Source of the DNA: an uncultured Gammaproteobacteria bacterium
Lineage (GTDB): Bacteria > Pseudomonadota > Gammaproteobacteria > Arenicellales > DRJH01
NCBI GenBank assembly: GCA_964415515.1
Contig: CAYQAP010000002.1
Span: forward strand, 28,443 to 92,442
Length of the DNA: 64,000 nt
Direction of reading: 5' to 3'
Shown here one piece after another: positions 2,007 to 57,996 of this stretch. Every line of letters starts with the position of its first letter. The first letter of the stretch is position 1. Made by a program: the position numbers and the translations under genes. The notes below the pieces were generated by a model. That model saw nothing but the letters and a program-made list of their open reading frames with translations, was not told where the DNA came from and ran no database searches.

Positions 2007-2026
2007 GAATAGGTGTACCGGCTATA

Positions 2027-3435: not shown

Positions 3436-3453
3436 CATATCGTTACCGTTATC
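3436..3453. repeat. Left terminal inverted repeat CATATCGTTACCGTTATC
   Basis: The reverse complement of 4164..4181 is CATACCGTTACCGTTATC, with one mismatch at position 5. Confidence 0.8.
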
Positions 3454-4168: not shown

Positions 4169-4181
4169 CGGTAACGGTATG
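4164..4181. repeat. Right terminal inverted repeat GATAACGGTAACGGTATG
   Basis: Reverse complement of the left IR (17/18). Confidence 0.8.
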
Positions 4182-4190
4182 ACTAAAATG
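4182..4190. repeat. Right copy of putative 9-bp target-site duplication (ACTAAAATG)
   Basis: Directly abuts the right IR. Matches 8/9 with 3427..3435. A 9-bp duplication is the size produced by IS50/Tn5-type elements. Confidence 0.6.
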
Positions 4191-4207
4191 ACATAAAGGA
4201 CATTCAC

Positions 4208-5772: not shown

Positions 5773-5776
5773 ACAA

Positions 5777-9455: not shown

Positions 9456-10213
9456 TTCCTTCGGTCAATATTCTTGGAACCCTGGTATCGGCTGTTAATT
9501 CAGAACTGGCCATTGCCACGATTTGCCACTGGATCGAAACCGGGGTTAAAGCCTATGTATGCGTGCGTGATGTGCATGGTATTATTCGCGCCCTACACGA
9601 TCCCGAATTCAAGAAGATCCAAAACCAGGCAGGAATGTGTGTTCCGGACGGAATGCCCACTGTACTGGTCGGGAGGTATTATGGACATACTAAAATGTCC
9701 AGAGTTCGTGGTGCTGATTTTATGAATCAGCTGTCAGCAGTATCCGTCGTCAAATCCATCAGGCATTTCTACTATGGTGGCAAGCCGGGGGTTGCTGATC
9801 TTCTCAAACATCGCATGCAGGCACGATTTCCCGGTTTACAGGTTGTGGGAACCTATTCACCGCCTTTTCGCCCACTCTCATCATCACAGAAAGCCGCGTT
9901 TATCGCCCAGATCGAAGCGCTCGCACCGGACATTATCTGGGTTGGGCTAAGCACCCCAAAACAGGAATCCTGGATGGCAGAATATCTTGAGCTACTCAAT
10001 GTCAAGGTATTGATTGGAGTAGGAGCCGCTTTTGATTTTCACACCGGGTTGGTCAAAGAGGCACCTAAGTGGATGCAAAAGTCCGGATTCGAATGGCTGT
10101 TCAGACTTTTTTCGGAACCTCGCAGGCTGTGGAAGCGCTATTTTTACATTATTCCACTTTTCCTGTTTCATTTGTCCTGCCAGTTATCTGGACTGCGTAA
10201 ATACAAGCCCTGA
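9452..10213 (+). CDS. WecB/TagA/CpsF family glycosyltransferase
   Basis: 253 aa. VNSELAIATI..., ADGMP, YGGKPGVA, WVGLSTPKQE, GVGAAFDFHTG, EWLFRLFSEPRRLWKRY are typical of this family. ATGA overlap with the upstream gene. Confidence 0.85.
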   Translation: MIPSVNILGTLVSAVNSELAIATICHWIETGVKAYVCVRDVHGIIRALHDPEFKKIQNQAGMCVPDGMPTVLVGRYYGHTKMSRVRGADFMNQLSAVSVVKSIRHFYYGGKPGVADLLKHRMQARFPGLQVVGTYSPPFRPLSSSQKAAFIAQIEALAPDIIWVGLSTPKQESWMAEYLELLNVKVLIGVGAAFDFHTGLVKEAPKWMQKSGFEWLFRLFSEPRRLWKRYFYIIPLFLFHLSCQLSGLRKYKP

Positions 10214-10295
10214 TCTGCAATGAACTCTTCTGCTTTTAACCACCCCATTAGCGCCTGCCCATGACACTGATCTCACTATTCAGGGAAATTTTGCA

Positions 10296-11723
10296 ATGAG
10301 CCAAAACCAACCTGCCGACAAAGGTCTATTTTATGGCTTTTTGGCACTTCTTTATTGGCTCCCTTTGCCTCTGGGCAGCAATCGGGGCTTTGCCATCATG
10401 ATTTTTGTACTTGTGGTTTGCCTGCTCAGCCTGTGGTGGTTGATTCTTTACTGGAGAAACAGGGTTCGTATTTCTTCAGCCTTCAAAAATACCTGGCCCT
10501 TGCAATTTCTTTTAGTACTATTTCTTGGCTACATTCTTCTGCAGCTACTCCCAATACCATCACCCTGGCTCGCAGCGCTGTCACCGGGATCATTCACCCA
10601 CTGGAACTCAATAAAAATCTTTAGGCCAGATAAAACCTTCGCTGCTCTATCACTCTCCCCTGATGACACATCATGGTTTCTCCTGAAAAGTGTTGGCTAT
10701 GTCCTGCTTTTCAACCTGACATTATTGATGGTCCGTAGTCATTCGCGGATCCGCCTATTACTCTTGACTCTGGTGATCAGTGGAACCTTACAGGCCATCT
10801 ATGGAAGCCTGATGATGTTATCGGGTACGGAATTTAGCTTCTTTGCAAAAAAAGCGGCATATTTGGGTTCGGCAACAGGTACTTTTGTTAATCGTAATCA
10901 CGTAGCCGGTTATCTGGAAATGTGCCTGGCAGCTGGCATCGGCCTGCTGATCATGAGCCTTGACCCACACAACAGTACAAACTGGCGTCAGCGCTTTGCC
11001 AATTTCCTGCGCCTGGTACTAAGCCCCAAAATCAAGGTCAGAGCTGCACTCGCCATTATGGTCATCGGCATGGTTCTCACCCATTCGAGAATGGGAAATG
11101 CTGCTTTTTTCATCAGCCTCATCATTACCGGAATTCTCTGGATGCTGCTCTCTGGACAACGGCCTGGCAAGCCCGTTTTATTACTGTTGACCAGTCTTTT
11201 TGTTATTGACCTCTTCATTGTCGGCAATTGGTTTGGTGTCGACAAGGTAGTAGAGCGTATAGAAAATACCCGGGCCAATGCTGAGACACGCGATGAGGTG
11301 GTCCGTGACAGTATAGTCTATGCAAAAAACTTTCGACTAACAGGCAGTGGTGGCGGGACATTTGCCACAGTGTACCCCATCTTCAGGCAAGCAGATGTTC
11401 AAGGTTTCTATGATCACACCCACAATGACTACCTGGAGTTTCTGCTCGAAACCGGACTTATCGGTACCGCTCTGTTAGGTATCTTTACCGCCAGCAGTGT
11501 GCTCGCCGCTTTGCTCTCGATCCGTAAGAGACATCAAGCTGTAATGCGTGGAACCGGCTTTACTGCAACGATGGGGTTGATCGCGATCCTGATTCATTCC
11601 CTGGTTGATTTTAATCTGCAGATTCCTGCCAATGCAGCATTATTTATGGTTTTGTTAGCCTTGGCCTGGATCGCGTTATTTCTCGGTCGCCATCAACGAT
11701 TGCAAAAATCATCTACTTCCTGA
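10296..11723 (+). CDS. O-antigen ligase / Wzy_C family membrane protein
   Basis: 475 aa, polytopic. Contains a large loop with the HTHNDYLEFLLETGLIG signature. Confidence 0.75.
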   Translation: MSQNQPADKGLFYGFLALLYWLPLPLGSNRGFAIMIFVLVVCLLSLWWLILYWRNRVRISSAFKNTWPLQFLLVLFLGYILLQLLPIPSPWLAALSPGSFTHWNSIKIFRPDKTFAALSLSPDDTSWFLLKSVGYVLLFNLTLLMVRSHSRIRLLLLTLVISGTLQAIYGSLMMLSGTEFSFFAKKAAYLGSATGTFVNRNHVAGYLEMCLAAGIGLLIMSLDPHNSTNWRQRFANFLRLVLSPKIKVRAALAIMVIGMVLTHSRMGNAAFFISLIITGILWMLLSGQRPGKPVLLLLTSLFVIDLFIVGNWFGVDKVVERIENTRANAETRDEVVRDSIVYAKNFRLTGSGGGTFATVYPIFRQADVQGFYDHTHNDYLEFLLETGLIGTALLGIFTASSVLAALLSIRKRHQAVMRGTGFTATMGLIAILIHSLVDFNLQIPANAALFMVLLALAWIALFLGRHQRLQKSSTS

Positions 11724-12364
11724 ATACCCTTGACGCGATAACATAGATACAACTTAAGGTTATAGTGTTTGACCACCTTGATCAGGCGGTCTGGGTCAAT
11801 CCTGACCAGTCTGTTGATCTGTTGCTCCAGTCTTCTTCTCTCCTCAGCATGGAGCTCCGACAAATGGCTAAAATATATTTGTATCCCTCCTATTAGTACG
11901 GTCGGCTCATAGCCTCCCAACTCATCCAATTTCCGCATCGCGGTATGAAACTGTGCATCCCGCTGACCCAGCTTGTCCTTGACTATTGCATAGGAAAGCC
12001 AACCGTAAACATAGGCCGGACGTTGAACTACGGCTCGCGTGTATAAGGTGAGAGCCCGCTGTAAAGCCTGATTGCGAGCTGATCCCGATATTTCAAGTGT
12101 TGACCTCCAAAGAAAAAGATCCCCACCAAGTTGTAACAAGGAGGGACTCGAAGCGTGCCAATAGCTTGCCTTATCAAAAAAGGTATTAGCCTTCTGCCAC
12201 TGCTTGTCCGTCGGACTTTTTCCAGCCTGATCCCAACTGTCTGTATACGCCTGCAAAAAATATTGGTTGATAGAAGCCATTCCCAATCTTACTGCGACAT
12301 AGCCCGTCACCAGCAAAAGGATCACAACAAACAGCAACAGTACTTTTTTAGCCAGTATAGACAT
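11693..12364 (-). CDS. Hypothetical membrane-anchored helical-repeat (TPR-like?) protein
   Basis: 223 aa with an N-terminal TM anchor (VLLLFVVILLLVTGYVAV), then an alpha-helical-looking repeat region. Its 3' end overlaps the convergent ligase-like gene by 31 nt. Confidence 0.45.
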   Translation of the reverse strand: MSILAKKVLLLFVVILLLVTGYVAVRLGMASINQYFLQAYTDSWDQAGKSPTDKQWQKANTFFDKASYWHASSPSLLQLGGDLFLWRSTLEISGSARNQALQRALTLYTRAVVQRPAYVYGWLSYAIVKDKLGQRDAQFHTAMRKLDELGGYEPTVLIGGIQIYFSHLSELHAEERRRLEQQINRLVRIDPDRLIKVVKHYNLKLYLCYRVKGIQEVDDFCNR

Positions 12365-12388
12365 CAGGGTGAAAATCCCTGCTAACCA

Positions 12389-13117
12389 TTACAGACCAAA
12401 ATGTACCGCACTGATAGCTGCTGGCATCTCCTGAAAAAGCCTCACTGCTACCCCTTCTCCGGCGTGCTGACAAACCATATCAAACGCAGCTTGCAATCGT
12501 GGTGGTCGATGCACTAGGTTGTGTGCATCTGTAGCCACCACATCAATCCAGCCACGTTCCAGCATTTGCAGTGCTCGCTTTTTTGCATAAGGTCCAAATC
12601 CTCCAGTAATAGAGCGCGCAGTCACTTGCAGCATTGCCCCTGCTTCCCTAATCGGTTCAATTTTTTCCAGATGGGTCAAAACAGCTTTATTTCGTTCGGG
12701 ATGAGCGACCAGTGGCCTGATGTTATGTGACAATAAATATTTAATAAATTTTACTGTGCCTGGCAAAATCATTGAGTGAGGAAATTCCAGCAGCAGGATT
12801 TTATAGCCACCCAGCTTACCCAAAAAAGGGATTTTATTGCCGGCAATCATGGTCATGACCTGTGGATCAATTCGAACCTCGGCCGCAAAAGCAATGCGCA
12901 ATGGGATGCTGCGTGCTAACAGCGCTTGCTGCAGAATCGTATAAGCCGCCTGTATCGAATGGACGTCATTATCGTACCGATTCAAATGAATATGTGGTGT
13001 GATCACTGAGTGGGTAATACCGTCTTCGACAGCAATTTCCACCAACTTCAGCGCATCATCCAGATCGACTGCACCATCGTCGATACCTGGCAAAAGATGG
13101 CTATGTAAATCGATCAT
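12389..13117 (-). CDS. PHP-family protein-tyrosine phosphatase (CpsB/CapC type)
   Basis: The ORF extends to 13153. The internal start MIDLHSHLLPGIDDGA mirrors the S. pneumoniae CpsB N-terminus (MIDIHSH...DDG). Further His-rich metal motifs are present (TPHIH, AHPERN, ATDAHN). Confidence 0.85.
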   Translation of the reverse strand: MIDLHSHLLPGIDDGAVDLDDALKLVEIAVEDGITHSVITPHIHLNRYDNDVHSIQAAYTILQQALLARSIPLRIAFAAEVRIDPQVMTMIAGNKIPFLGKLGGYKILLLEFPHSMILPGTVKFIKYLLSHNIRPLVAHPERNKAVLTHLEKIEPIREAGAMLQVTARSITGGFGPYAKKRALQMLERGWIDVVATDAHNLVHRPPRLQAAFDMVCQHAGEGVAVRLFQEMPAAISAVHFGL

Positions 13118-13258
13118 ATCACTCGGCAGATTAATTAATAACCAGGGAGACATCCTGAATGTGGAGTTTTTGCTATCAACCCCTTAAGCTGCTTTCAGCA
13201 TAGCAGTCGGTCAACCAGCTGAACAGCCCAGTTTTATCGGTATCGATCGAACTTACGA

Positions 13259-15481
13259 TCAGTCATGGTGATAACCCTCATAGGAACCATAATAGCCATA
13301 ATTATAATTGTAGTAACCTTTGTCACTCTTGCCTTGATCATGCGGAATGTCATTGAGTATTCCGCCGATAATATTGGCACCAATGCGACGTAAGCGTTTG
13401 AGGCCTTCCCGAACGGCCGGAATCGGAGTAGACTCAGATTTGACCACATAGATCACACCACTGGATTTGCTAGCCACTACCAAAGAATCACTTACGGCCA
13501 ATGTTGGTGCAGTGTCAATCACAATGGTGTCAAAGACCTTGCTAAAGGTCTCGAGCATTGCACCGAAACGTTTAGAGGAAAGAAGGGCAACCGGGTTGGG
13601 GGGGATTATCCCGGATGGCATCACATGAATATTGCTGTCATCAATTCGATGTATGCATTTACTGATAGTTGCTATACCAGATACATATTCGGATAAGCCC
13701 GGAGCTTTAGAATCAATACTCCACACTTTAGCTACTGTAGGGCGGCGCATATCGGCATCAATCAGCAGTACTTTGGCAAACTCCGCCAGTGAACTGGCAA
13801 GGCTCCCAGAGATAGAGCTCTTACCTTCCCCAGGTACCGAAGAGGTCACCATGATCACCTTGTAAGGATTGTCCAGACTGGAAAGCAACATCCCGGCACG
13901 GATAGTCCTGATTGATTCTGAATAGTAGGACTGCTGGTGCTCCTGCATATAATTGATTGGGTTTTCACCCGCATTCGTTTTTAATTTCAAGTGCGGTAAA
14001 GTGCCCAATTCGGTCATCTGCAGACGACCCTCCAGATCACCCGTACGACGCAATGTATTATCAAGATGCTCATGCAGGAAAGCCACGAAAATACCAAAAA
14101 ATAATCCCAGGATAGTCGCAATAGAAATAATCAATCCTTTCTTGGGTTTGATCGGCTTCAATGCCGGAACTGCAGGATCGGCAATTCTTGCGCCGGGTTT
14201 GATCAGACCCGTTTGCTTGGTTTCCTTGGAGCGATTTAGAAATAATTCAAACAGCTTTTTATTCGATGCCACATCCCGCATCAGCACACCCAACTGATAA
14301 CTTTTACGACTGGTGGACTGAATAGTGTTCTTGGCAGAATTGATTGCTGACAGCAGGGATTGCTCACTGGTTTTAGCAACTTGATAACTTTTCTGAATAC
14401 TTTCCAGGACCACTCGAACCCGTCGATCGACCGCAATCTTGGCGGCCTTGAGGTCGGCCTTGGCCTGAATTAATTTTGGATGCTTGGGCCCATATCGTTT
14501 GCGCAGGGTTTGTAGATTGCGTTGTGAAACTTCTTCAACCTGCTTTAATTTCCCTAGCAACTGATCATTCAGGACTGCAGGCAGGGTACTCAATTTTTCA
14601 ATTGACCCGCCTTTGAGCCTTTTTACCTGCCGCAGTGCAGTTTCAGCTTCCACCCGTTTCTGGCGAGTCAGTATTAATTTGGTTTGCAATTCCTGAAGCT
14701 GCCTGGAATCGAGCGCCCCTACATCATTGGATTCAAGTAAACCCTGTTTTTCACGGTATTGCTGTAATGCAGTTTCAGACTCCTGCAACTTGTTTTTTAA
14801 TGTTTTCAGGCGATCATCCAGCCAAGTGGAAGCCAGTGTGGTTAGTTGCAACTTGGCATCCATATCATTTTCGATATAAGCCTGAGCCAGTGAGTTGACA
14901 ATTTGAGCAACCAAATTTCGATCGTTGGCCTCAAAACTGATCTTTACCAACTGGCTGGAATTGATGGGAATGACCTGAATACGTTGTGTGACTTGATTCA
15001 CCGTTTTCTCAAAGGTCATATTCGCATTGGCTGGTGGTTTGGCAGTTAGTGATGCAGGTAGCCATGTTGGAAGCCAGCTGCGCCAGTCAAAATCAACCAA
15101 CGGTTTCTTACGATCGACAAATTCCGGATTATTGGTCAACTGCAATTTCTTAACAACCTGTCCAACCAGTTTTCTGGATTTAAGTAGTTCATACTGGGTC
15201 CGAAAATAATCATTCCCCCCTAAGCCGTAGACCTCCTTGATGGAAACCACATTATTCTTGTCTGGAGAAATCAGGAGTATTGCAGACGATTGGTAGATAG
15301 GCTTCATGGAGTAAACAACCAACGTCGCCAAAATAGCAATCATCAGGGTCAGTGTAAGAATACTCCACCGGTGTCGCTTAATGACCTGACCGTACTCACG
15401 AAGGTTCAGCTCACCCTCGTCAGATTTGAGCACAGTTGCAGTCTCGTTCTGCTTTATCTCAGTCAATCTTGCTGTCCTCAC
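13259..15481 (-). CDS. wzc: Polysaccharide co-polymerase / tyrosine autokinase (Wzc-type BY-kinase)
   Basis: 740 aa with a GTG start. Two TM segments flank a long coiled-coil periplasmic domain. The C-terminal P-loop domain has SSVPGEGKSS, LLIDADMRRP and IVIDTAP, followed by a Tyr-rich tail GYYNYNYGYYGSYEGY. Confidence 0.9.
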   Translation of the reverse strand: MRTARLTEIKQNETATVLKSDEGELNLREYGQVIKRHRWSILTLTLMIAILATLVVYSMKPIYQSSAILLISPDKNNVVSIKEVYGLGGNDYFRTQYELLKSRKLVGQVVKKLQLTNNPEFVDRKKPLVDFDWRSWLPTWLPASLTAKPPANANMTFEKTVNQVTQRIQVIPINSSQLVKISFEANDRNLVAQIVNSLAQAYIENDMDAKLQLTTLASTWLDDRLKTLKNKLQESETALQQYREKQGLLESNDVGALDSRQLQELQTKLILTRQKRVEAETALRQVKRLKGGSIEKLSTLPAVLNDQLLGKLKQVEEVSQRNLQTLRKRYGPKHPKLIQAKADLKAAKIAVDRRVRVVLESIQKSYQVAKTSEQSLLSAINSAKNTIQSTSRKSYQLGVLMRDVASNKKLFELFLNRSKETKQTGLIKPGARIADPAVPALKPIKPKKGLIISIATILGLFFGIFVAFLHEHLDNTLRRTGDLEGRLQMTELGTLPHLKLKTNAGENPINYMQEHQQSYYSESIRTIRAGMLLSSLDNPYKVIMVTSSVPGEGKSSISGSLASSLAEFAKVLLIDADMRRPTVAKVWSIDSKAPGLSEYVSGIATISKCIHRIDDSNIHVMPSGIIPPNPVALLSSKRFGAMLETFSKVFDTIVIDTAPTLAVSDSLVVASKSSGVIYVVKSESTPIPAVREGLKRLRRIGANIIGGILNDIPHDQGKSDKGYYNYNYGYYGSYEGYHHD

Positions 15482-15725
15482 ACATACAAGACGTAGTGCT
15501 TAAAAAAACATGCAATACGGCGCACCCAAAAATTTTCGAGATATCACCCCACCAGTGTAGCAAACTATTCACAGCCACCCATCCTGCCACTATGGCCTCA
15601 AACAAGCAAAATCTTGAATTAACTTTAGTTCTTCAGTGCAGTTTATTGTTTTTACTTGACCATTGCAATACGACAAACTTGTCAGTCAAAGAAAGCTGGC
15701 ACAGTAGCCCCAAGCCTATTGGGCA

Positions 15726-16301
15726 TTAGAAGAAGCTACGCTTCACAGTGATCACGTCACCAGGTGTTACCAGGGCACTTAATGTAACCTTGGCAGGAGT
15801 AGCGTCAGGAGTTTTACCGGGAACCACAACAATATTTTCCCGATCAGCACGCTCATTGAACCCGCCGGCCAGGGCAATGGCCTTACGAACTGTCATTCCG
15901 GGCTGAAACGGGTAACCACCTGGTATCTTTACCCAGCCGTTGACATAGAAATTACGATACTGCAGTAAGGATACCGTGACAATAGGATCCACCAAATAAG
16001 GGCCTTTGAGCGTGTCGGTGACGAACTTCTCCAGTTCCGCAGCCGTCATGCCCTGGACCTTGATCGCACCGAGAAATGGATAGGAAATTGTTCCACTATC
16101 ACTGACCAAGGTTTCGATGGTCATATCCGGCTCACCGAGCACCTGTATCTTGATTTTATCACCAGCACCAAATTTGTACTCGGTTTGTGCATCAGCTGAT
16201 GTTGAAAATACCAGAAACATAAATGCTAACAACAGGATAAACCCACTACTGATGAAGCCAGAATTGCTGTAGAACAACCACCTTGTTCGATCCACGGTCA
16301 A
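15726..16301 (-). CDS. Polysaccharide export protein, short Wza/EpsE-like (Poly_export + SLBB)
   Basis: 191 aa with a TTG start and a signal-like N-terminus ending STSADA. GDKIKIQV, YPFLGAIKVQGMTAAELE, YVNGWVKIPGGYPFQPGMTVRKAIALAGG. Confidence 0.8.
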   Translation of the reverse strand: MTVDRTRWLFYSNSGFISSGFILLLAFMFLVFSTSADAQTEYKFGAGDKIKIQVLGEPDMTIETLVSDSGTISYPFLGAIKVQGMTAAELEKFVTDTLKGPYLVDPIVTVSLLQYRNFYVNGWVKIPGGYPFQPGMTVRKAIALAGGFNERADRENIVVVPGKTPDATPAKVTLSALVTPGDVITVKRSFF

Positions 16302-16477
16302 AGCACCTGAGTCACTATGATTTCACTCCCGATACCACATTAATTATTGCTCTGATTTAATAGTACCTATCAGGACCATACCCCCGATACAGATTAATAT
16401 TCTCCCAAGCCAATATAGCAGATCTCTATGCTTGGTGTTGTGCTCTATCGTGTGTCCGAGAATATCTGTTTTCATCT

Positions 16478-17875
16478 TCAGTAAGCATTCTTGCCAGTAA
16501 AGCCCCGAAAAACTGTCATCACGATTATTTTCATGTCCAGCCAAGTGCTCCAGTTCTGGATATACCAGAGATCACACTTGATTCGCTCTTCCATCTTGTC
16601 CTGAGTTTGTGTTTCCCCACGCCAGCCATTAACCTGAGCCCAGCCGGTAATCCCAGGCCTTACCGCATGACGCAACATATAGCCTTTGATTCGCAAGCGA
16701 TAATACTCGTTATGTACGACCGCATGGGGTCTGGGCCCTACAATCGACATTGTACCGGCCAGGACATTAAAAAGCTGGGGGAGTTCATCTAGCGAAGTCC
16801 GGCGGATAAAAGCGCCGACTCTGGTCACTCTCGGATCGTTACGTACTGCCTGTGTTACGATACGATCGTTCTCTCGTGTTGTCATGCTGCGAAACTTCCA
16901 TACCGTAAATTCTTTGCCATCCATCCCATAACGCTTCTGTCTGAATAGCACCGGACCTGGAGAGCTGATTTTTACCGCCACTGCTATCATCAGCATGACC
17001 GGGCTGATAAGGATCAGAATCAACATCGATAACACCATATCCTGCACTCGCTTCAGAAACAGTGCTGCGCCTGTAAACGGAGTTTGAAAGACACTAACCA
17101 TAGAAATGTCATCGAGTGCCTGCCATTGTTGCCCATGAAACAAGTTGAAGGTAAACAAATCCGGGATTATAAATACAGATGCCGTGGTATCGGATAATGC
17201 GCTGAGCAACTCAACAATACGCTTTTTGGCATTGATCGGTAACGCAATATAGATCTGATTAACTTCCCCATTTCGGGCTTTCTCGATTATCGTCTCGAAA
17301 TTACCATCAATCTCGCAGGATGAATTGATCCGTTTTTGTGCAGGCTTTCGGTCATCATAAATACCAAGCAAATCATAGCCGAAATTAGGATGACGCTGGA
17401 TGGCCTTCACCAGATGCATACCCGCATCACTTGCACCCAGGACCGCAACTTTTTGCCGATCATACCCTTTACTACGGGCATAGTACATGATGGTGCGGGT
17501 CAGCCTGCGCCACAGCAACATCGGTACCGGTGTGACAATAAACCAAAAAACTGTCGCCAGACGAGAAAAATTCTCACTCTGTTTGGTGGCATACAAACCA
17601 ACCAACAATACCAACGCTGCAATCACCCAGGTGGTAGTAACCAGCGTGGCCTCGTAAGCAAAGGGAATATTACGCCAAGATCGATAAAGATTGAGCACCT
17701 CTGCGACAATCAGGAAAATTGCAACTGCAACAATATCGAGAAAAATATAGAGTGGTTTATTGGCCACATAGGAATAGGCTTGCAAGGCCACCTGCAAAGA
17801 CAAGTAGATGGCCAGCGCATCAAACAATTTGAAAAGTGCGGACACCAGCAATGACTGATTGTGCTCGCTATTCAT
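16478..17875 (-). CDS. Polyprenyl-phosphate hexose-1-phosphate transferase (WcaJ/WbaP-type priming glycosyltransferase)
   Basis: 465 aa. N-terminal TM bundle, central Rossmann-like region, and a C-terminal bacterial sugar transferase domain (PGPVLFRQKRYGMDGKEFTVWKFRSM, DELPQLFNVLAGTMSIVGPRP). Confidence 0.9.
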   Translation of the reverse strand: MNSEHNQSLLVSALFKLFDALAIYLSLQVALQAYSYVANKPLYIFLDIVAVAIFLIVAEVLNLYRSWRNIPFAYEATLVTTTWVIAALVLLVGLYATKQSENFSRLATVFWFIVTPVPMLLWRRLTRTIMYYARSKGYDRQKVAVLGASDAGMHLVKAIQRHPNFGYDLLGIYDDRKPAQKRINSSCEIDGNFETIIEKARNGEVNQIYIALPINAKKRIVELLSALSDTTASVFIIPDLFTFNLFHGQQWQALDDISMVSVFQTPFTGAALFLKRVQDMVLSMLILILISPVMLMIAVAVKISSPGPVLFRQKRYGMDGKEFTVWKFRSMTTRENDRIVTQAVRNDPRVTRVGAFIRRTSLDELPQLFNVLAGTMSIVGPRPHAVVHNEYYRLRIKGYMLRHAVRPGITGWAQVNGWRGETQTQDKMEERIKCDLWYIQNWSTWLDMKIIVMTVFRGFTGKNAY

Positions 17876-18079
17876 GCTTTCAATGGCCTCACAGGTTATA
17901 AATCAGCGTATCGGCTACCTCCTCAACCGACAGTATAGATCAAAAAACCGACTATTTGAGCAGCATCTACTTCTGTGATCTGCCAAGTTATGGGTCAACA
18001 GTGGCCAACTCACAACTGTGGCCAATTTTTCATCCAGCAGCTAAAATAGCCTCCCCACACCGAACATCCTCCTGTGAAC

Positions 18080-24336: not shown

Positions 24337-25995
24337 TTATCGCAACAACAAGTTGATTTTTGCAGGTGTTTTGTTAGCCGCAATGCGCAATTTCCGCCAA
24401 CACTGCAAACCAGCCAACATGAGCCAGCTGCCGAGCAGTAACAGTACAGCGTACAACAATTCATGCGGCTGCCAGTAATCCGTGTGTTGCAATAAGCCCT
24501 GCAAACCGGCCCATTGTCCTACGCCCCACACCAGCAACCCCATGCTGAGCGCAAGTCCGCCAGCACGTTGTTGGCGCGATAATGCCAGCCCAATCATCAC
24601 CAACAATCCAGCTGATACCAAAGCACTCGCAACACCCCACGCCACCCACAATGCGGTAAGACCATGGCCGGGTAGTATAAACAATGCCAGACCTGCCGTG
24701 AATGCCGTCAACAGCAAAGAGGACAAACGAAAACTGTGGTTTGCCATGTTTTTTATCGCGTCGTTGAGTAATATTCTTTGACCACGAAGCCCAGCCTGCA
24801 GTGCCGCCATAAGCAAGACGATTGCGGTAAATCCGGCAAACCCCAAGCTGCTGGCACTGGAAATACCCAACTGACTGATCAGATCAGCCACCTGAGCTAA
24901 AGCACCTGAAAAAGCATATTGCAGGCTTTGTTGGGACTGCCAGGACAACGCCGTGCTCTGGGCATCACCAACGCCGATCATGACCAACCATATCAAGCCT
25001 GCCAGAACAGCTACCGTGATACCGACATAGCTGTGTAATGGGGTCATACGTTGTTGGGTTCGGGTACTCCCCACCACAGAAATCATATACCAGGCTCCGA
25101 AAGTGACCGCTGGTAAACTGATCAGTAGCCCGGGCAATATAGGGACAGGGGCCACTGTGGTGATACGCGGTATCACCATGATTGCCGAAATTGTCAGCAT
25201 ACCTAGCATTGCAGACAACAGCAGCAGCATACACAGGACACCGACAGCCAATCGATACCGTACCACCGCCTCATGGCCCTGACGTAACATCAATCCATAC
25301 AACATCACCAGTATGAACAACCAGAGGGTTGAGGGTTGCACCACAAACTGAGTATCACCACTGCCGAGCAAATAAATTTCTCCCACCAAACGCAACGGCA
25401 AGATACTGGCAATCGGTAACAGCAGCAGCCATAATACTGCCAGCACGATGATCGAACCGGTGTCTGAGCGCCACAATCGCGTCTTTCTCAACACTACAAA
25501 AGGCACCCAATGCAACAGCACCAGGCTGGCTGCAACCGGGAATAACGCCATAAGCTGACTCGCCACAACCAACAGCAGGACATGAATCAGCGTCGCTGCA
25601 ATCTGTAATAACAGCGCCATAGACCTGGACCCATGCCGGCCTAGCAAATCCTTGCTGACCGCTGCGAACCCATCCAGTGGATAACGACCATCAAGAAAAT
25701 GCAACCCTGCAGCAGTCATCCCGCAAACCCCAAGTCCACCCACCAGCAACCACAACGCCACCGGCCCCCACCCCCAAAACGAAGCCAGAGGAATACTGAC
25801 CAGTAACCCGCCACCCAGTAAAAGAACCGTTTGGTTAACGGTGCAAACCACGGCAGCGCGACCACCAGGGGCAGCAATGGCTCTCGGCAGCAATGTTGTG
25901 GCAGGAAAAAACCAGCGGCCGAGAAAACGGCCCAGAAAGTGCCAACCGACCCCGACCAATAACAACATAACCGCTAGCATCCACCACGGACTCAC
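24337..25995 (-). CDS. Hypothetical polytopic inner-membrane protein (~14 TM), family not recognised
   Basis: 552-aa ORF (GTG start; alternative ATG at 25980), hydrophobic throughout and Leu/Gly/Ala/Trp-rich. It ends 48 nt upstream of hemA on the same strand. Confidence 0.6.
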   Translation of the reverse strand: MSPWWMLAVMLLLVGVGWHFLGRFLGRWFFPATTLLPRAIAAPGGRAAVVCTVNQTVLLLGGGLLVSIPLASFWGWGPVALWLLVGGLGVCGMTAAGLHFLDGRYPLDGFAAVSKDLLGRHGSRSMALLLQIAATLIHVLLLVVASQLMALFPVAASLVLLHWVPFVVLRKTRLWRSDTGSIIVLAVLWLLLLPIASILPLRLVGEIYLLGSGDTQFVVQPSTLWLFILVMLYGLMLRQGHEAVVRYRLAVGVLCMLLLLSAMLGMLTISAIMVIPRITTVAPVPILPGLLISLPAVTFGAWYMISVVGSTRTQQRMTPLHSYVGITVAVLAGLIWLVMIGVGDAQSTALSWQSQQSLQYAFSGALAQVADLISQLGISSASSLGFAGFTAIVLLMAALQAGLRGQRILLNDAIKNMANHSFRLSSLLLTAFTAGLALFILPGHGLTALWVAWGVASALVSAGLLVMIGLALSRQQRAGGLALSMGLLVWGVGQWAGLQGLLQHTDYWQPHELLYAVLLLLGSWLMLAGLQCWRKLRIAANKTPAKINLLLR

Positions 25996-35812: not shown

Positions 35813-36931
35813 TCAGTTACTCTCGATCTTCAGATTACCGAACATGACATGGAAGAACGGCATACCGAACATTCTGCCTGCTGCCATCTCTTCCTGGACA
35901 TGTTTCTTGGTTTTACCCATCAGCTTCTTGGCGTCCATCAGCCTGGCCGCGGCTGCTTTCTTGGCCGGCCCATCGGGCATGGCCATGATTTTCTTGTTGG
36001 CCTTCATGATACTGGCCTTGACCTGCGGGAAAGGGATATAACCACTTTTCAGCGGTGCAGGAGCCAGGCCTTTGGGAGTCACCTTGAACGGCGGCACCAT
36101 CAGATGAAGCACTTTGCCGGTACTGCCTGCTCCCACATCACCATCAAAACCCAACTTATTGCCGTCACCACGCACAAACTCGGTGATCATCATATGTACG
36201 AGCTGATTGTCATTGACCAGTCGACCATCCGAATAGATCTTGCCGATCCCCCAGAAAGCAGCATAGGTGTATTCCGTAGGCATCAAATTGGTCCCAATAC
36301 CGGTCACACCATGCAACAAGATATCGGTGACCACACCACCAAAGGTTGGGAACAGCTTGCCATGGGGCATGGGCTTGTCGACCACGACCCGGTAGGTATG
36401 GGATTTATCCGGTGCATCAAAGGTGGCCTCAAAACTGATTTTGTCTTCCGTAACCTTACCGTCGATGGCAGTCACATCTTTCAGGGTCATAGTAAGATCC
36501 CCGACACCGACCACCATCCAGTCACTGAACGGCGTGGCATGGTCGGCAATGGTGTATTTGCCATCACGCTGCTGGCGCAATTTCAAGGAGACTCCCGTCA
36601 ACGGAAAAGGCCCCTGCTGCCAGCCATTCGGGTGCTTGGGATCACCGAAAACTGCAGGGTCCATAGCCCGGGGCCCGGGTAAAGCCCAGCGAATCGAGCC
36701 TTGTTTTTGTGAGGCGGTCACCGTCACAGTGCCCCCCAGGCGCCGTGGTGGGGTGGGGTTCTTGGCATGGGACTGGGTATAGGCGCCCAGTCCAACCATG
36801 GGTGCCTTGGCGGCCGCCATTTTGTCGTCCTGTGTCGTTCCCGCTGTGGCACAGCCAGCCACCAATAACACTGTGGAAGCTGCCGCCACAACCCGAGATA
36901 GTCGTCTTGTCGGAAGTGCTGTAGTTTTCAT
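35813..36931 (-). CDS. Hypothetical Tat-signal lipoprotein with His/Met-rich motifs, family not recognised
   Basis: The ORF extends to 37030. The likely start MKTTALPTRRLSRVVAAASTVLLVAGC combines a twin-arginine motif and a lipobox. The mature ~345 aa contain no Cys. HMM, HLM, HVM and MAMP-type motifs are concentrated toward the C-terminus. Confidence 0.6.
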   Translation of the reverse strand: MKTTALPTRRLSRVVAAASTVLLVAGCATAGTTQDDKMAAAKAPMVGLGAYTQSHAKNPTPPRRLGGTVTVTASQKQGSIRWALPGPRAMDPAVFGDPKHPNGWQQGPFPLTGVSLKLRQQRDGKYTIADHATPFSDWMVVGVGDLTMTLKDVTAIDGKVTEDKISFEATFDAPDKSHTYRVVVDKPMPHGKLFPTFGGVVTDILLHGVTGIGTNLMPTEYTYAAFWGIGKIYSDGRLVNDNQLVHMMITEFVRGDGNKLGFDGDVGAGSTGKVLHLMVPPFKVTPKGLAPAPLKSGYIPFPQVKASIMKANKKIMAMPDGPAKKAAAARLMDAKKLMGKTKKHVQEEMAAGRMFGMPFFHVMFGNLKIESN

Positions 36932-37134
36932 AACATTCCTCTGTCTGTTGGTCTTTGCATATAGGATTACTTGCGTTGGGAGATCGGTAATGTTGCAACC
37001 TGCCGCTGTGGCCCGGATACCCTGAGACACACAAAACAGCTTAGGATTCGAACCTCCCTCCGCACGCTATAGACCGTACCGGACCCACTAAGTTCCTGCA
37101 CTGTCTAAAAGGGTCATTCAAAGCAGCCAGAAAA

Positions 37135-52217: not shown

Positions 52218-52862
52218 TCAAGCACGTACCAGTATCAGCAAACGACGATCGGCTGCCACACCAGGTACCGATAAAACAATATTGTGCTGCAATTGCCAGC
52301 CTCCAGGCAACTCCTTTAACTCCCTGTCAATCGGCCAGTTTTTCAAAGCCAACACCCGCCCCTGTGCGCTGCATAAATGCCCGGAATACTCCAGCAACCT
52401 CGACAAGGGGGCAACAGCGCGGGCAGTAAGCGTATCAAATTCTTCTTCGGGCTGGTATTGTTCTACACGTGCCGTGATCACCACCACATTCGCTAGTCCC
52501 AGCTCCGTTACTGCCTGTTGCAGAAAGCGAGTACGTTTGCTCCGACTGTCCAGCAGAAAAAAATCGTGTTCGGGCCGCATGATTGCCAGCGGTATTCCCG
52601 GCAGCCCCGCCCCACTGCCAATATCCAGTACCCGCCGACCTGCCAACCAAGGCAGCAGCGGGAGACTGTCGAACAGATGCCGATATACCATTTGTTGTGG
52701 TACGGTCACTGCAGTTAGATTGACTGTACGACTCCAGCGTTGCAGCAGTCGTAAAAACAGCAGCAGCTGCTGCTGTTGCAGCACCGAGGAAACAATGCCG
52801 AGCTGCTGCAGACCCGTGCCCAAGCTGTCGGCTGCCTGCTGCCAGGCCGCTTCAGGCTTCAT
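52218..52862 (-). CDS. rsmG: 16S rRNA (guanine527-N7)-methyltransferase
   Basis: 214 aa. DIGSGAGLPGIPLAI. Conserved position upstream of parA. Confidence 0.92.
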   Translation of the reverse strand: MKPEAAWQQAADSLGTGLQQLGIVSSVLQQQQLLLFLRLLQRWSRTVNLTAVTVPQQMVYRHLFDSLPLLPWLAGRRVLDIGSGAGLPGIPLAIMRPEHDFFLLDSRSKRTRFLQQAVTELGLANVVVITARVEQYQPEEEFDTLTARAVAPLSRLLEYSGHLCSAQGRVLALKNWPIDRELKELPGGWQLQHNIVLSVPGVAADRRLLILVRA

Positions 52863-53650
52863 GGGTGAGCCACATCAACAAGAACAACGGTAATATTGTC
52901 CCGGCCTCCGGCCAAGTTGGCCAAATCCAGCAACCGATACACCGCCGTCTTGGCATCTTTAATAGTGGCCAAAGCAAGCGCGATTTCCCTGTCCTCAAGC
53001 ATGTCATGAAGACCGTCCGTGCACAAAATATAGCGATCCCCCGCCAACATTGGGTGATGGCCAACCTCGGCCCGAGCCCTGGCCTCGGTTCCCAGTGCCC
53101 GAGTAATGATGTTGTCCCCCACAGCGGCTGCAGCCTCCACAGGTGAACAGATGCCCTGATCGATTAGCTGCTGTCGCAAAGTGTGGTCACGGGTCAATGG
53201 TGTCAAGGTCGATTGCCGCCATCGATACAAACGGCTGTCCCCGATATGTGCCAACCACAGATTCTGAGCGTGGAATACTGCTGCCACAGCAGTCGTTGCC
53301 ATACCCTGGCAGTCTGCGTCCTGTCTGGCGGTGTCAAGGATGGCATGGTTTGCGGCATTCATCGCCGCCTCCAGAATATTGTTCACTGCTCCGGGCCAGC
53401 GTCCTCCCGCAGTCCGCCATTGATTAGCAAGACTGCGGACAATTTGACTGGTTGCCACGGCGCTGGCCACTTCGCCAGAACGATAGCCGCCAACCCCGTC
53501 AGCGATGACCGCCAGGCCCATCTCGGGGAGCCAGGCCGAACTGTCCTCATTGTGGTCACGTAACTGGCCAACATGGCTTGCCTGGACTGCTGAGAAGCTC
53601 AATATGGATGGAGACAACCCAGTTACGGCATCGTAATGCGGCGTATTCAT
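52859..53650 (-). CDS. PP2C-family (PPM) serine/threonine protein phosphatase
   Basis: 263 aa. GQLRDHNEDS, AVIADGVGGYRSGEVAS, LCTDGL, GGRDNITVVLV. The stop overlaps the rsmG start (ATGA). Confidence 0.88.
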   Translation of the reverse strand: MNTPHYDAVTGLSPSILSFSAVQASHVGQLRDHNEDSSAWLPEMGLAVIADGVGGYRSGEVASAVATSQIVRSLANQWRTAGGRWPGAVNNILEAAMNAANHAILDTARQDADCQGMATTAVAAVFHAQNLWLAHIGDSRLYRWRQSTLTPLTRDHTLRQQLIDQGICSPVEAAAAVGDNIITRALGTEARARAEVGHHPMLAGDRYILCTDGLHDMLEDREIALALATIKDAKTAVYRLLDLANLAGGRDNITVVLVDVAHP

Positions 53651-53754
53651 AGGATGGAATTGTACATCAATGTTGCCGGGTACTCTGTCACAACCCGGCT
53701 TTGCTGTAGAATCCTTCCTTTAGCAACCCGGTTCTGCTCATTCTACGTCTTCCT

Positions 53755-54462
53755 ATGTCTGATTCTTGTAAAATCTCTGTGATAATGCCGGTTCTCAATG
53801 AAGCGACCGTACTGAATAGTGCACTCCCCAAACTGATTCATGACCAATGTTTCAAGGAGGTCATCGTCGTTGATGGTGGCAGCACGGATTCAACGATCAC
53901 AATCGTAGAGAAATTTATTGCTGACCATCCTGACCTTGGCTTGCAACTGCTCCACTCGATTGTCGGTAGAGCGCGACAGATGAACGCCGGCGCTGCTGTG
54001 GCAAAATCACCGATCCTGTTATTCTTGCATGCTGACAGCCGTTTACCCACACACACAGTTCCAGCCATTTGTGCCACCTTGAATCGGCATAATTGGGGCT
54101 TTTTCCGGATCCGTATTGACAGCCCTCAGCTGCTATTGCGGGTAGCCAGTCAAATGATGTGCTGGCGTTCTGCGCTGACCTCAATCGCGACAGGAGACCA
54201 GGCTCTGTTCATCAAGACAGCACTTTTCCAGAGACTCGGTGGCTTTGCCACGATACCCTTGATGGAAGATATCGAACTGTGCCACCGGCTGAAGGGTACA
54301 GGCCGGCCTGCTTGCGTTCTGCGTCCGGTACAGACTTCTGCCCGCCGCTGGCAGTCCCATGGCATGGTACGAACCATTCTACTTATGTGGTCATTACGTT
54401 TTGCTTACTGGCGGGGTGTTGACCCTGCTACGTTGTCGCGCCGTTACCACCATGCCCGCTAA
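53755..54462 (+). CDS. Family-2 glycosyltransferase of the DUF2064-associated type (TIGR04283-like as recalled)
   Basis: 235 aa. ISVIMPVLNEA, VIVVDGGSTDST, GRARQMNAGA, LFLHADSRLP, GDQALF, PLMEDIEL, TSARRW. Confidence 0.8.
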   Translation: MSDSCKISVIMPVLNEATVLNSALPKLIHDQCFKEVIVVDGGSTDSTITIVEKFIADHPDLGLQLLHSIVGRARQMNAGAAVAKSPILLFLHADSRLPTHTVPAICATLNRHNWGFFRIRIDSPQLLLRVASQMMCWRSALTSIATGDQALFIKTALFQRLGGFATIPLMEDIELCHRLKGTGRPACVLRPVQTSARRWQSHGMVRTILLMWSLRFAYWRGVDPATLSRRYHHAR

Positions 54463-55138
54463 GCCCGGTACCCAACCGGAATCATCCGGGTCACCTCAAT
54501 TGCATATTCTGGCTCGTCAGCCTGTAGCAGGTTGCTGTAAAACACGCCTGGAGACACACTGCAGTGCTGAGCAGGCTGCGACTATTGCTGCTGTCTTATT
54601 GCAGGAAACCGTAGCCATCGCCTGCAGCGGCTGGTCAGGCGGGGTATTCCTGCATGGCTCACCGGATTGCCATCACCCACTATTTGCCAGCTTGGCTGCG
54701 CAGTATTCACTCAGCCTCGCCGACCAACAAGGGAAAGATCTGGGACAGATCCAGGCCAATGCGCTGGCGGTATCCCTGAATATTGGTCATGCGGCTGCAG
54801 TAATCGGTTGCGACCTGCCCGGCCTGGAAAAGCAGCTGTTGCAGGAGGCCTACAACCGCCTCCAGCAAGGGGAAGCCTTGCTTGGCCTGTCTCCAGATGG
54901 CGGATATTACTTGCTGGGAGTACCGCACTTGCCACCCGGGTTGCTGCAGCATATTCACTGGAGCAGTACTGAAGTCTCTTCACAGCTACTTCGCAATGCT
55001 CGGGCCTGTCATCTTAACATAGCCTGTGATCTACCTCTTATCAATGACGTCGACACCTGGCAGGATCTGCAGGCAGCGGTTGCTGCAAAACCAGGCCTGG
55101 GACAGCAGCTGCATGCCTGCCTGCCAGCGCTGTGGTAA
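54452..55138 (+). CDS. DUF2064 / CofC-MobA-like putative nucleotidyltransferase (TIGR04282-like as recalled)
   Basis: Internal ATG 54452 overlaps the GT2 stop by 11 nt. ILARQPVAGCCKTRL parallels the family motif AKAPxPGxVKTRL. IGCDLP and DGGYYLLG are further family-like motifs. Confidence 0.7.
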   Translation: MPAKPGTQPESSGSPQLHILARQPVAGCCKTRLETHCSAEQAATIAAVLLQETVAIACSGWSGGVFLHGSPDCHHPLFASLAAQYSLSLADQQGKDLGQIQANALAVSLNIGHAAAVIGCDLPGLEKQLLQEAYNRLQQGEALLGLSPDGGYYLLGVPHLPPGLLQHIHWSSTEVSSQLLRNARACHLNIACDLPLINDVDTWQDLQAAVAAKPGLGQQLHACLPALW

Positions 55139-56079
55139 AAGAGCCCAGGATGCCTCCGCCTGCTAAGACCGCTTCGACCCGGGCCTTGTTAGCCCCAGGT
55201 TACTGGCCAACCTGGCTGGGGCTAGGCTGCCTGCGCTTGCTCAGACTGCTGCCATTACCCGTATTGTGGGCCTTGGCCTCAGTGCCGGGTTATCTGTTGT
55301 ACGGGCTGATCTTCTCAAGGAGGCGTGTCGTGCTACGCAATCTTGAAACCTGTTTCCCAGACTGGAGTCGAAAACGGAGACAACAGGTAGCGCGCAAGCA
55401 TTTCCATTATGCTACCTTCATGCTGTTGCTTGAGGGTTACGTGTGGTGGGGCAGTCCGCAGCAGCTGCAACAGATCGGCCGGTTCCACAACCGTCAGTTC
55501 TACGATCAGGTCATTGCCCAGGGCCACAATATCATTTTACTCGTACCACATTTCCTGGGCTTGGAAATCGGTGGTTTGTTACTCGCACTGGAACGCCCTA
55601 TGAGCAGCATGTATCAGTACAGCAAAAATCAGCTGCTGGATAGGGTGGTGCATCAAGGTCGGACCCGTTTTGGTGGCCAGCTGATTGAACGCAAAGCCCC
55701 GCTGAACGTACTCATACGCAGCCTGCGCAGTGGCAAGCCGTTTTATTATTTACCGGACCAGGATGCCGGCCTCCGCAAAGGAGTATTCGCCCCTTTTTTC
55801 GGTACCCCAGCGGCCACTTACCCGCTGCTAGGAAAATTCGCCCGCTTGGGCAAAGCAACGATCATCCCTTGCTACACCCGATTGCTTGCGAAGGGCAAAG
55901 GTTTTGAGGTGGTTTTTTTACCCCCGCTGCAAAATTACCCAACCGGTGATGAATTGTCCGATACCACGACCATGAATGCGGTGATTGAACAAATGGCCAC
56001 AGCTGAACCCGAGCAGTATTTCTGGTTACACAAACGCTTCAAGACTCGCCCCCCCGGGGCAACGAAATTTTATACCTGA
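55132..56079 (+). CDS. LpxL/HtrB-family late (lipid A-type) acyltransferase
   Basis: 315 aa (GTG 55132, alternative ATG 55150). N-terminal TM anchor, LLVPHFLGLEIGG (H-x4-E/D region), YYLPDQDAG, FGTPAAT. Confidence 0.8.
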   Translation: MVKEPRMPPPAKTASTRALLAPGYWPTWLGLGCLRLLRLLPLPVLWALASVPGYLLYGLIFSRRRVVLRNLETCFPDWSRKRRQQVARKHFHYATFMLLLEGYVWWGSPQQLQQIGRFHNRQFYDQVIAQGHNIILLVPHFLGLEIGGLLLALERPMSSMYQYSKNQLLDRVVHQGRTRFGGQLIERKAPLNVLIRSLRSGKPFYYLPDQDAGLRKGVFAPFFGTPAATYPLLGKFARLGKATIIPCYTRLLAKGKGFEVVFLPPLQNYPTGDELSDTTTMNAVIEQMATAEPEQYFWLHKRFKTRPPGATKFYT

Positions 56080-56109
56080 GTGGCACCCAGGTAGAAACCC
56101 GGTGCTTGT

Positions 56110-57996
56110 TCATCCAGAGCTCTTTTTCAAATAGACCAACAGCAGCGATATCGCTGCTGGTGTAATACCCGGAATTCGGGCCGCCTGACCCAAGGTTCGC
56201 GGTTGCTGTTGTTGCAGCTTTTGTTGTACTTCAGCCGATAACCCCCGAACCTCAGAATACCTGAACTCTACCGGCAACTGCATTTGCTCATGCTGTTGAT
56301 GGCGCTCAATTTCCCGGTGTTGGCGTTGCAAATAACCCTCATAACGTGCTTTTATTTGCAATTGGGCAATCGCCTCAGAATCCTTAAGCCCGGGGTTAAA
56401 GCCCGGCAACATTCCCAAACCCTGGTAGTCGACTCCAGGGCGTTTGAGCAGCTCGAACAAATGTGCTTCACGTTTCAGGTGCTGACCAAACACTTGCTGT
56501 TGCACTTCATTCGGGATCTGTTCGGGGTGCACTACCGTAGCCCGCAGGCGCTTGACTTCCGCCGCCACCGCATCCCGCTTGTCACAAAAGCGCTGCCAGC
56601 GCTGATCATCCACCAGACCCAGCTCACGACCGATGGGTGTCAAGCGCAGGTCTGCGTTGTCCTCTCGCAGGCTCAGTCGATATTCGGCGCGGGAAGTAAA
56701 CATCCGATAAGGCTCAGAGGTCCCACGGGTAATAAGATCGTCGATCATGACCCCAATATAGGCTTGATCACGGCGCGGATACCAGGGGGCTTTCCCGGTC
56801 ACACGCAAGGCCGCATTGAGTCCGGCAATCAACCCCTGGCCGGCGGCTTCTTCATAGCCGGTTGTGCCGTTGATCTGGCCAGCAAAAAACAACTGCCGGA
56901 TGGCCTTGGTCTCGAGCCATGGCTCAAGATCACGTGGATCAAAATAATCGTATTCTATGGCATAGCCAGGCCGGGTGATGTGGGCCTGCTCAAATCCGGC
57001 AATGCTGCGTACGAACCGTAGCTGTATATCATAGGGCAGGCTGGTGGATATGCCATTGGGGTAGAGTTCAGTGGTCTCCAAGCCCTCCGGTTCTACAAAG
57101 ATCTGGTGCGAATCCCGATCAGAAAAACGCACCACCTTGTCCTCGATGGAGGGACAGTAACGTGGACCAACACCTTCAATCCTACCACTATACAGTGGAG
57201 AACGATCCAGGGCATTGCGGATCACTGCATGGGTTTCGGGATTGGTTTGGGTAATGTAACAGGGCACTTGCCGGGGATGATCGCTGGCCTGCCCCATAAA
57301 CGAGAATACCGGCACCGGCTTATCACCCGGCTGTACGGTCATCCGGGAAAAATCCACTGAACGGCCATCGATACGTGGCGGAGTACCGGTCTTGAGCCGA
57401 TCTACACGCAGCGACAATGCCCGCAAACGTTGCGCCAAAGCCTTGGCAGGCTGGTCTCCAGCCCGCCCGCCCGCATAGTGCGTCAACCCGATATGGATGA
57501 TTCCACCAAGAAATGTGCCGGTCGCCAACACTACGCAATAACCGCGTAAAATCAGGCCCAGTTCGGTCTTTACTCCGACCACTTTGCTGCCTTCAACAAC
57601 CAGATCTTCTACCGACTGCTGTAACACCTGCAAGCCAGCCTGGTGTTCCAGTTGCCACCGAATGTGGTGCTTGTAAAGTGCGCGATCCGTCTGTGCCCGT
57701 GTCGCCTGTACTGCAGGGCCTTTGCGGGCATTCAAGGTCCGCAACTGAATGCCGGCATGATCTGCCGCCTGTGCCATACTGCCACCCATGGCATCGATTT
57801 CCCGAACAATATGCCCCTTCCCGATACCACCAATCGCCGGATTACAGGACATCTGGCCCAGGGTTTCAATATTCTGACTGATTAAGAGTGTCTGTGCCCC
57901 TATTCGTGCAGCAGCCAGCGCTGCCTCTGTCCCGGCATGCCCACCCCCGACTACGATGACTTCGTAATTCTGTGAAACAGCTTGCTTGCCGCGCAT
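56110..57996 (-). CDS. mnmG: tRNA uridine 5-carboxymethylaminomethyl modification enzyme
   Basis: 628 aa. [16 protein letters not shown], full-length GidA. Confidence 0.96.

Follow-up and report, generated by a model that had tools for sequence, protein, structure and literature searches.

The stretch of DNA analysed here, 64 kb of contig CAYQAP010000002.1 from an uncultured gammaproteobacterium (referred to below as the window), contains at positions 53755-56079 of the plus strand three packed, co-oriented open reading frames (ORFs), which encode a family 2 glycosyltransferase (GT2), a DUF2064 protein and an LpxL-like acyltransferase. These are known kinds of gene in a new order, and their operon with lpxL is real and restricted to one lineage. 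From the comparison with related loci, we consider it likely that this compact and probably co-transcribed operon holds two functionally separate units, namely the widespread pair formed by the GT2 and DUF2064 genes, and an ordinary lipid A late acyltransferase gene. A first-pass annotation had instead read the three genes as a self-contained route to an acylated glycoconjugate or a modified lipid A. This proposal found no support outside the clade to which the window belongs: no locus sampled there links the pair to a gene of the acyltransferase family, PF03279.

Gene arrangement and family membership

The three genes (the trio), the promoter-like site in front of them and the genes that bound them are as follows.

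53685..53712, plus strand, promoter-like site: -35 CTGTCA, 16-nt spacer, -10 TAGAAT, about 43 nt 5' of the GT2 start
53755..54462, plus strand, GT2 of the TIGR04283 family, 235 residues: TIGR04283 and PF00535 matches, GT-A fold, no transmembrane segment
54452..55138, plus strand, DUF2064 protein of the TIGR04282 family, 228 residues: TIGR04282 and PF09837 matches; alternative start TTG 54419 gives 239 residues
55150..56079, plus strand, LpxL-like acyltransferase, 309 residues: PF03279 match; alternative start GTG 55132
52859-53650, minus strand, PP2C-type Ser/Thr phosphatase: 5'-side boundary of the trio, 4-nt overlap with the rsmG start
56110-57996, minus strand, mnmG: 3'-side boundary of the trio, convergent, 30 nt past the acyltransferase stop

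The likeliest start of the DUF2064 gene, ATG 54452, gives an 11-nt overlap with the GT2 stop, and the JGI calls on near-identical contigs place it at TTG 54419, with a 44-nt overlap. The acyltransferase ORF, which ends at 56079, begins either at ATG 55150, 11 nt past the DUF2064 stop, or at GTG 55132, in overlap with it; the compact, co-oriented block described by the first-pass annotation is therefore as it said. Because the genes overlap or abut and a single promoter-like site lies 5' of the GT2, the three are likely to be co-expressed, and we infer that they very probably form one transcription unit. In a promoter and terminator scan, that site was the sole one on the plus strand within 53400-56400. 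The counts of promoter-like and terminator-like sites are not above those of shuffled sequence, so that the site is weak evidence and only its position is suggestive. Rfam detected one tRNA only in the window, and no riboswitch 5' of the operon.

The GT2, which contains the motifs GRARQMNAGA, LFLHAD, GDQ, PLMEDIEL and TSARRW, matches the hidden Markov model (HMM) of TIGR04283 over its entire length (256.8 bits, E 1.6e-76, profile 1-221 of 221), well above the curated cutoff of 182, and belongs to that family. The DUF2064 gene directly adjoins it, which is a second mark of TIGR04283; the association of the family with an ArsS-type radical SAM (rSAM) protein (rSAM plus DUF3641) is not seen within the window. 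An AlphaFold (AF2) model built from 120 homologues (pLDDT 91.5) has the GT-A fold, and its neighbours in the PDB are generic GT2 enzymes with template-modelling (TM) scores of about 0.6-0.7, 6YV7 (TM 0.69) being an example of the best. The protein lacks a hydrophobic segment (Kyte-Doolittle maximum 1.18). A role as polyprenyl-phosphate glycosyltransferase was envisaged and dropped, the fold search having returned generic GT-A enzymes with no indication of the acceptor.

The DUF2064 protein contains ARQPVAGCCKTRL, which, like the GT2 motifs, the first-pass annotation had correctly located. It passes the TIGR04282 cutoff narrowly (138.5 bits against 134) and that of PF09837 with ease (74.4 bits against 25.8), so that both placements of the pair, in TIGR04283 and TIGR04282, are upheld by curated HMMs. 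Every family-invariant residue is retained in the two proteins. The match of the DUF2064 protein to the CofC family TIGR03552 is far too weak for membership (23.8 bits against 105), and resemblance to CofC is at fold level only. The sequence matches PDB entry 3CGX (E 4.8e-15), and the fold matches, in order, 3CGX, FbiD (6BWH), 3-phosphoglycerate guanylyltransferase (7P97) and CMP-Kdo synthetases, a ranking that is only indicative, as it comes from a low-confidence model (AF2, shallow alignment, pLDDT 63.8 and below 50 in the C-terminal half). The first-pass label of CofC/MobA-like nucleotidyltransferase is reasonable, and the NCBI label "glycosyltransferase" less well founded. There were no fusion proteins among the five DUF2064 homologues found in a homologue search.

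The third gene encodes a member of the LpxL family with an N-terminal anchor, as had been proposed. It matches PF03279 over its full length (236.6 bits, E 4.7e-70, residues 17-305 on profile positions 6-295 of 295), and a hydrophobic segment at about residues 19-54 aligns with the N-terminus of Escherichia coli LpxL. The catalytic H-x4-D/E dyad is intact: H134-FLGL-E139 aligns with HFGTWE of Acinetobacter baumannii LpxM (5KN7), of which a mutant structure is available (5KNK, E127A). Among the E. coli paralogues, LpxL is the best match (35% identity, 185 bits; LpxP 165 bits, LpxM 142 bits), and the window protein aligns with it collinearly over the full length (residues 10-308 against 8-306 of LpxL). 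When the PDB was searched by sequence, LpxM was the only match at E<=0.01; PatA, which also has a structure there, was not matched. The scores against the NCBIfam models NF006432 (253.1, cutoff 384), TIGR02207 for LpxL/P (248.7, cutoff 297.8) and TIGR02208 for LpxM (233.5, cutoff 336.05) do not reach the cutoffs, and we therefore file the protein as LpxL-like within PF03279 and not as a proven LpxL equivalog.

The pair outside the clade

A scan of species-representative genomes with the GT2 alignment gave at least 598 confirmed relatives, the best-scoring 80 of which were analysed. Their GT2 is 42-52% identical to that of the window, and Psychrobacter, Halomonas, Oceanisphaera, Nitrospira, Methylomirabilota, betaproteobacteria and alphaproteobacteria are all represented. 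A PF03279-like ORF was found in none of these 80 loci, using an HMM of LpxL homologues at E<=1 over flanks of at most 10 kb, shorter where the contig ends, and tblastn agrees. A PF03279 gene was also not found at four further outgroup loci:

L004, Psychrobacter arcticus 273-4 (CP000082.1): ArsS operon
L006, Sulfuricaulis: pair alone
L117, gammaproteobacterial metagenome-assembled genome (MAG) GCA_018819845.1: long ArsS operon
L118: pair, then convergent ArsS fragment

The first-pass annotation had made its pathway depend in part on a linkage between pair and acyltransferase conserved in other genomes; outside the clade, there is none in these loci.

DUF2064 lies directly 3' of the GT2 in 64 of the 80 loci. 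Of all 80, 49 include an ArsS-type rSAM gene, as do 35 of the 52 for which at least 5 kb are available on both flanks; an adjacent rSAM is absent from the other 31 (17 of the 52). The first-pass annotation was right that the window has no radical SAM gene: a search for CxxxCxxC gave no real ORF, and a Pfam scan of the other window genes gave none either. It had taken this for a departure from the usual arrangement, but a pair without adjacent rSAM is common (about one third of sampled loci) and nothing special, ArsS being a frequent and not an obligatory neighbour. The 31 loci without ArsS are flanked mainly by pyridine-nucleotide disulfide oxidoreductases (some of them DedA/VTT fusions), dCTP-deaminase-like proteins, methyltransferases and short-chain dehydrogenases/reductases, and no Lip_A_acyltrans gene is among these flanking genes. 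In a rough neighbour-joining tree, the GT2 of the window clade is sister to four loci from Sulfuricaulis and unclassified Pseudomonadota contigs (L006, L013, L018 and L118), three of which are ArsS-linked.

Two of the ArsS operons deserve a description of their own. That of L117 (1-13609) runs from rSAM/DUF3641 through a fusion of DedA (VTT) with a pyridine-nucleotide disulfide oxidoreductase, DUF547, DedA, GT2, DUF2064, Pyr_redox_2, a methyltransferase and a peroxiredoxin to a PstS-like ABC transporter, with MbnB/BufA1 (bufferin-type) genes 5' of it; the DedA and oxidoreductase genes that recur beside the pair seem to be undescribed as its partners. In P. arcticus (L004:381-7080), the ArsS-DUF547-GT2-DUF2064-methyltransferase operon is divergent to eptA, a two-component system, a diacylglycerol kinase (DAGK) and a PAP2 phosphatase. 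We considered eptA, PAP2 and DAGK as a link to the envelope and rejected it: these genes are transcribed away from the operon, and the pattern was not met with at other loci.

The acyltransferase outside the clade

Homologues of the acyltransferase are 95-75% identical to it inside the clade and then drop, in a protein search, to 56% or less, with 53-62% in two short metagenome contigs. The 54-56% homologues, from three contigs as long as 4 Mb, lie in a glnA-like / lpxL / glcD-like context with no pair, and on the short contigs with the 53% and 62% homologues neither the pair nor mnmG is a neighbour. On the three contigs (L007-L009, about 4600-6930), which are the nearest outgroup, the lpxL orthologue comes right after a glutamine-synthetase-like gene, with a 3' overlap in two of the three, and before a glcD-like oxidase; this is a further case of lpxL inside an operon of unrelated genes. 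A metagenome scan with the acyltransferase gave 20 loci, of which two are known clade contigs and the remainder short or distant. More than 100 homologues are 48-56% identical, and several are named KDO2-lipid IV(A) lauroyltransferase in their sources, so the protein looks like a member of a normal orthologue group.

The trio within the clade

Every clade member seen carries the trio within the complete gene order atp-parB-parA-rsmG-PP2C / trio / mnmG:

L116, JGI contig: GT2 90% identical
L115, JGI contig 3300002231, 60 kb: nucleotide sequence of the trio region about 99.7% identical
L001-L003, marine-sediment MAG GCA_011052285.1 ("Gammaproteobacteria bacterium") and metagenome contigs: GT2 70% identical
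L090, JGI contig: GT2 64% identical

Since the whole region is syntenic, the persistence of the trio is no independent argument for coupling between its members. L116 and L090 retain the -10-like TGTAGAAT upstream of the GT2, and L001 retains part of it; in the clade alignment, the rest of the spacer diverges and holds no conserved operator, such as an ArsR site.

Purifying selection acts on each of the three genes. Relative to L116, the ratio of non-synonymous to synonymous divergence (dN/dS) is 0.11 for the acyltransferase, 0.27 for the GT2 and 0.26 for DUF2064, as compared with 0.23 for rsmG, 0.20 for PP2C and 0.09 for mnmG. Relative to L001, the two genes of the pair have values of 0.10-0.17. 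Overall, the ratios of the pair are similar to those of rsmG and PP2C. Protein identity to L001 is 78% for the acyltransferase, 78% for ParB, 81% for ParA, 82% for MnmG, 70% for the GT2 and 65% for DUF2064. By these measures, the acyltransferase appears to be conserved like its core or housekeeping neighbours, with no sign of a functional shift.

Two irregularities were noted among the clade contigs. L115 has one extra nucleotide (A) in the GT2 gene, around codon 48 (equivalent to window position 53897; L115:4779-5100), and the called product has only 196 residues; given the 15 ambiguous bases in this contig, it may be an assembly error. L001 and L002 have identical GT2 proteins and diverge past mnmG, into pilT-like/MscS/cupredoxin genes as in the window for the one and relA/spoT-rpoZ-gmk for the other, which reflects either a strain rearrangement or a chimeric assembly.

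Probably two separate units in one operon

The question arises as to what the operon might do. Its first unit would be the widespread TIGR04283-TIGR04282 pair. The DUF2064 protein, if it acts like CofC and FbiD, would spend a nucleoside triphosphate to activate a phosphorylated small molecule or a sugar-1-phosphate, giving a nucleoside-diphosphate-activated intermediate, and the GT2, a soluble or peripheral inverting GT-A enzyme, would move the activated moiety onto an acceptor. The GT2 reaction inverts stereochemistry, and arsenosugars are beta-ribofuranosides; a beta-ribofuranoside product would be expected because GT2 enzymes invert. In most relatives, where the pair lies beside ArsS, its presumed substrate would be the 5-deoxy-5-dimethylarsinoyl-ribose unit of the ArsS product, leading to beta-ribofuranoside arsenosugars. 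ArsS itself converts DMAs(III) to 5'-deoxy-5'-dimethylarsinoyl-adenosine (DDMAA) (PMC13598754). The first-pass statement that the product of the pair is unknown is out of date in that NCBIfam now calls both families arsenosugar biosynthesis glycosyltransferases, a name given by association only.

The second unit would be an ordinary LpxL-type late acyltransferase of lipid A, anchored by its N-terminal helix and equipped with the H-x4-E dyad, which would acylate Kdo2-lipid IVA or a close derivative. We suppose that, in one uncultured clade of marine-sediment Gammaproteobacteria, pair and lpxL came to stand together between mnmG and PP2C-rsmG, with the pair directly 5' of lpxL; this order would since have been inherited together with the rest of the local synteny. 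The juxtaposition would then probably be a clade-specific gene order and not a new pathway.

Several points count against this separation into two units. The overlapping or abutting genes and the single promoter-like site, which make co-expression likely, are also expected of a shared pathway, and the arrangement has persisted to saturated synonymous divergence (dS above 1.5). The acyltransferase falls under every curated NCBIfam cutoff for LpxL, LpxP and LpxM, so that its assignment to a particular substrate is tentative. The sample of 80 loci covers only the best-scoring end of the at least 598 confirmed TIGR04283 hits. Finally, in full-text literature searches DUF2064, TIGR04282 and TIGR04283 turned up in annotation-level mentions only (PMC13077682, PMC8801600), with no experimental study among the results.

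Alternative readings

Three other readings are considered: a second lipid A acyltransferase, a single pathway, and a decaying remnant.

The acyltransferase may be a second, condition-specific late acyltransferase of lipid A, with a role like that of LpxM or LpxP, co-regulated with the pair only through the shared promoter. Many Gammaproteobacteria have two PF03279 paralogues, and on an unrelated marine-sediment metagenome contig (L103) two of them are found 2.6 kb apart, at 3337-4344 (plus strand) and 6970-7944 (minus strand), 33% and 30% identical to the window protein. The scores under the curated cutoffs, nearly equal for the LpxL/P and LpxM models, would also suit such a role. However, the best E. 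coli match is LpxL, there is a large set of homologues at around 50% identity, several of them named lauroyltransferase in their sources, the evolutionary rate is that of a housekeeping gene, and an LpxL HMM detected no second PF03279 ORF within the window. We regard this reading as improbable.

If the trio formed one pathway, DUF2064 would activate a sugar or phospho-compound, the GT2 would link it to lipid A/Kdo or another lipid, and the product would be acylated by the PF03279 enzyme. This would account for the tight packing and for the retention of the trio down to 64% GT2 identity, with all three genes under purifying selection. The pair of this clade has no adjoining ArsS although its sister group has one, which would fit a co-option. 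Conservation within the clade is, however, confounded with that of the whole region, and the loci outside it argue against a pathway, the PF03279 gene adjoining the pair in none of the 80 nor of the four outgroup loci and the closest outside homologues of the acyltransferase standing in unrelated contexts. Moreover, the acyltransferase shows neither the acceleration nor the divergence of an enzyme put to a new use: its dN/dS is low, it stays close to many LpxL-annotated proteins and collinear with E. coli LpxL, and the sequence search of the PDB led to LpxM and not to PatA. A single pathway thus seems to us rather unlikely. Its most specific form, in which a pair descended from an ArsS-linked ancestor was co-opted with a translationally coupled PF03279 enzyme to make or modify a lipid of the envelope (lipid A bearing a glycosyl or pentosyl group, or else a glycolipid that has been acylated), is a long shot; if true, it would be the first functional handle on the role of the pair without ArsS.

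That the pair is a decaying, functionless remnant of a lost ArsS operon, as the lack of ArsS, ArsM or any other arsenic gene in the window (Pfam scan) and the insertion in L115 might suggest, is very improbable, both genes being intact across the clade with all their family-invariant residues and dN/dS values similar to those of rsmG and PP2C, and the L115 insertion being open to doubt.

We therefore retain the reading of two separate units in one operon. Read on its own, the locus would point to an envelope-lipid pathway not yet characterised. Comparison with other loci makes this unlikely, and the locus should not be prioritised as such. The pair itself is common, bears its "arsenosugar" name by association, and is not adjacent to ArsS in about one third of the loci sampled. 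In this clade, it sits in a core-genome operon near parAB and away from arsenic genes, which makes it a possible test case for an ArsS-independent role.

Surroundings of the operon

Beyond PP2C lie rsmG, then parA, parB and the atp operon. The genes mnmG, rsmG, parA and parB usually adjoin in Gammaproteobacteria; here PP2C and the trio split mnmG from rsmG-parA-parB, and the split is retained across the whole clade. The other window genes covered by the Pfam scan are ordinary chromosomal genes:

rph, prfA, hemA, lolB, ispE, pth, ychF
glpD, glpR, glpK, glmS, glmU
atp operon, parAB, rsmG, mnmG
pilT-like ATPase, mscS, PBP1A

Positions 1-17900 hold an exopolysaccharide or capsule cluster, with an epimerase, two polysaccharide deacetylases, GT4 enzymes, WecG, a Wzy_C-type protein, a CpsB phosphatase, a Wzc-like kinase, Wza and a Bac_transf initiating transferase. 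Its GC content falls as low as 38% in the 2-6 kb part; positions 3530-4168 carry a transposase DNA-binding fragment. Four long ORFs of the window have no Pfam match at E<=1e-5: 24337-25995 (minus strand, 552 residues), 2037-3215 (minus strand, 392 residues), 6949-8253 (plus strand, 434 residues) and 35813-37030 (minus strand, 405 residues), the last of which overlaps an ORF on the opposite strand and may be spurious.

Comparison with known systems

The fold of the DUF2064 protein, as far as its model (pLDDT 63.8) can be followed, resembles that of the CofC/FbiD guanylyltransferases acting on 2-phospho-L-lactate, phosphoenolpyruvate or 3-phosphoglycerate (6BWH, 7P97), and that of 3CGX. It differs from CofC in lying far under the TIGR03552 cutoff, and in having a GT2 as partner in place of a CofD/FbiA transferase.

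In mycobacteria, the glycosyltransferase PimA and the PF03279 acyltransferase PatA make acylated phosphatidylinositol mannosides. They offer a precedent for a PF03279 enzyme acylating the glycolipid of an adjacent glycosyltransferase, which is the logic of the one-pathway idea. PimA, however, is a GT4 enzyme with a GT-B fold and not a GT2, and the acyltransferase of the window groups with LpxL-annotated gammaproteobacterial proteins.

The ArsS operon of P. arcticus 273-4 consists of ArsS (rSAM plus DUF3641), DUF547, GT2, DUF2064 and a methyltransferase, with a PNP_UDP_1 phosphorylase nearby. Its GT2 is about 50% identical to that of the window, passes the same curated HMM and has DUF2064 directly downstream. 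The window pair differs in having no ArsS, DUF547, methyltransferase or phosphorylase nearby, and in being followed by an lpxL-type gene.

That gene stands behind two unrelated genes in one block, unlike E. coli lpxL, and its product scores under the NCBIfam cutoffs; with E. coli LpxL (b1054, Kdo2-lipid IVA lauroyltransferase) and A. baumannii LpxM (5KN7), it shares the PF03279 domain, the N-terminal anchor and the H-x4-E dyad.

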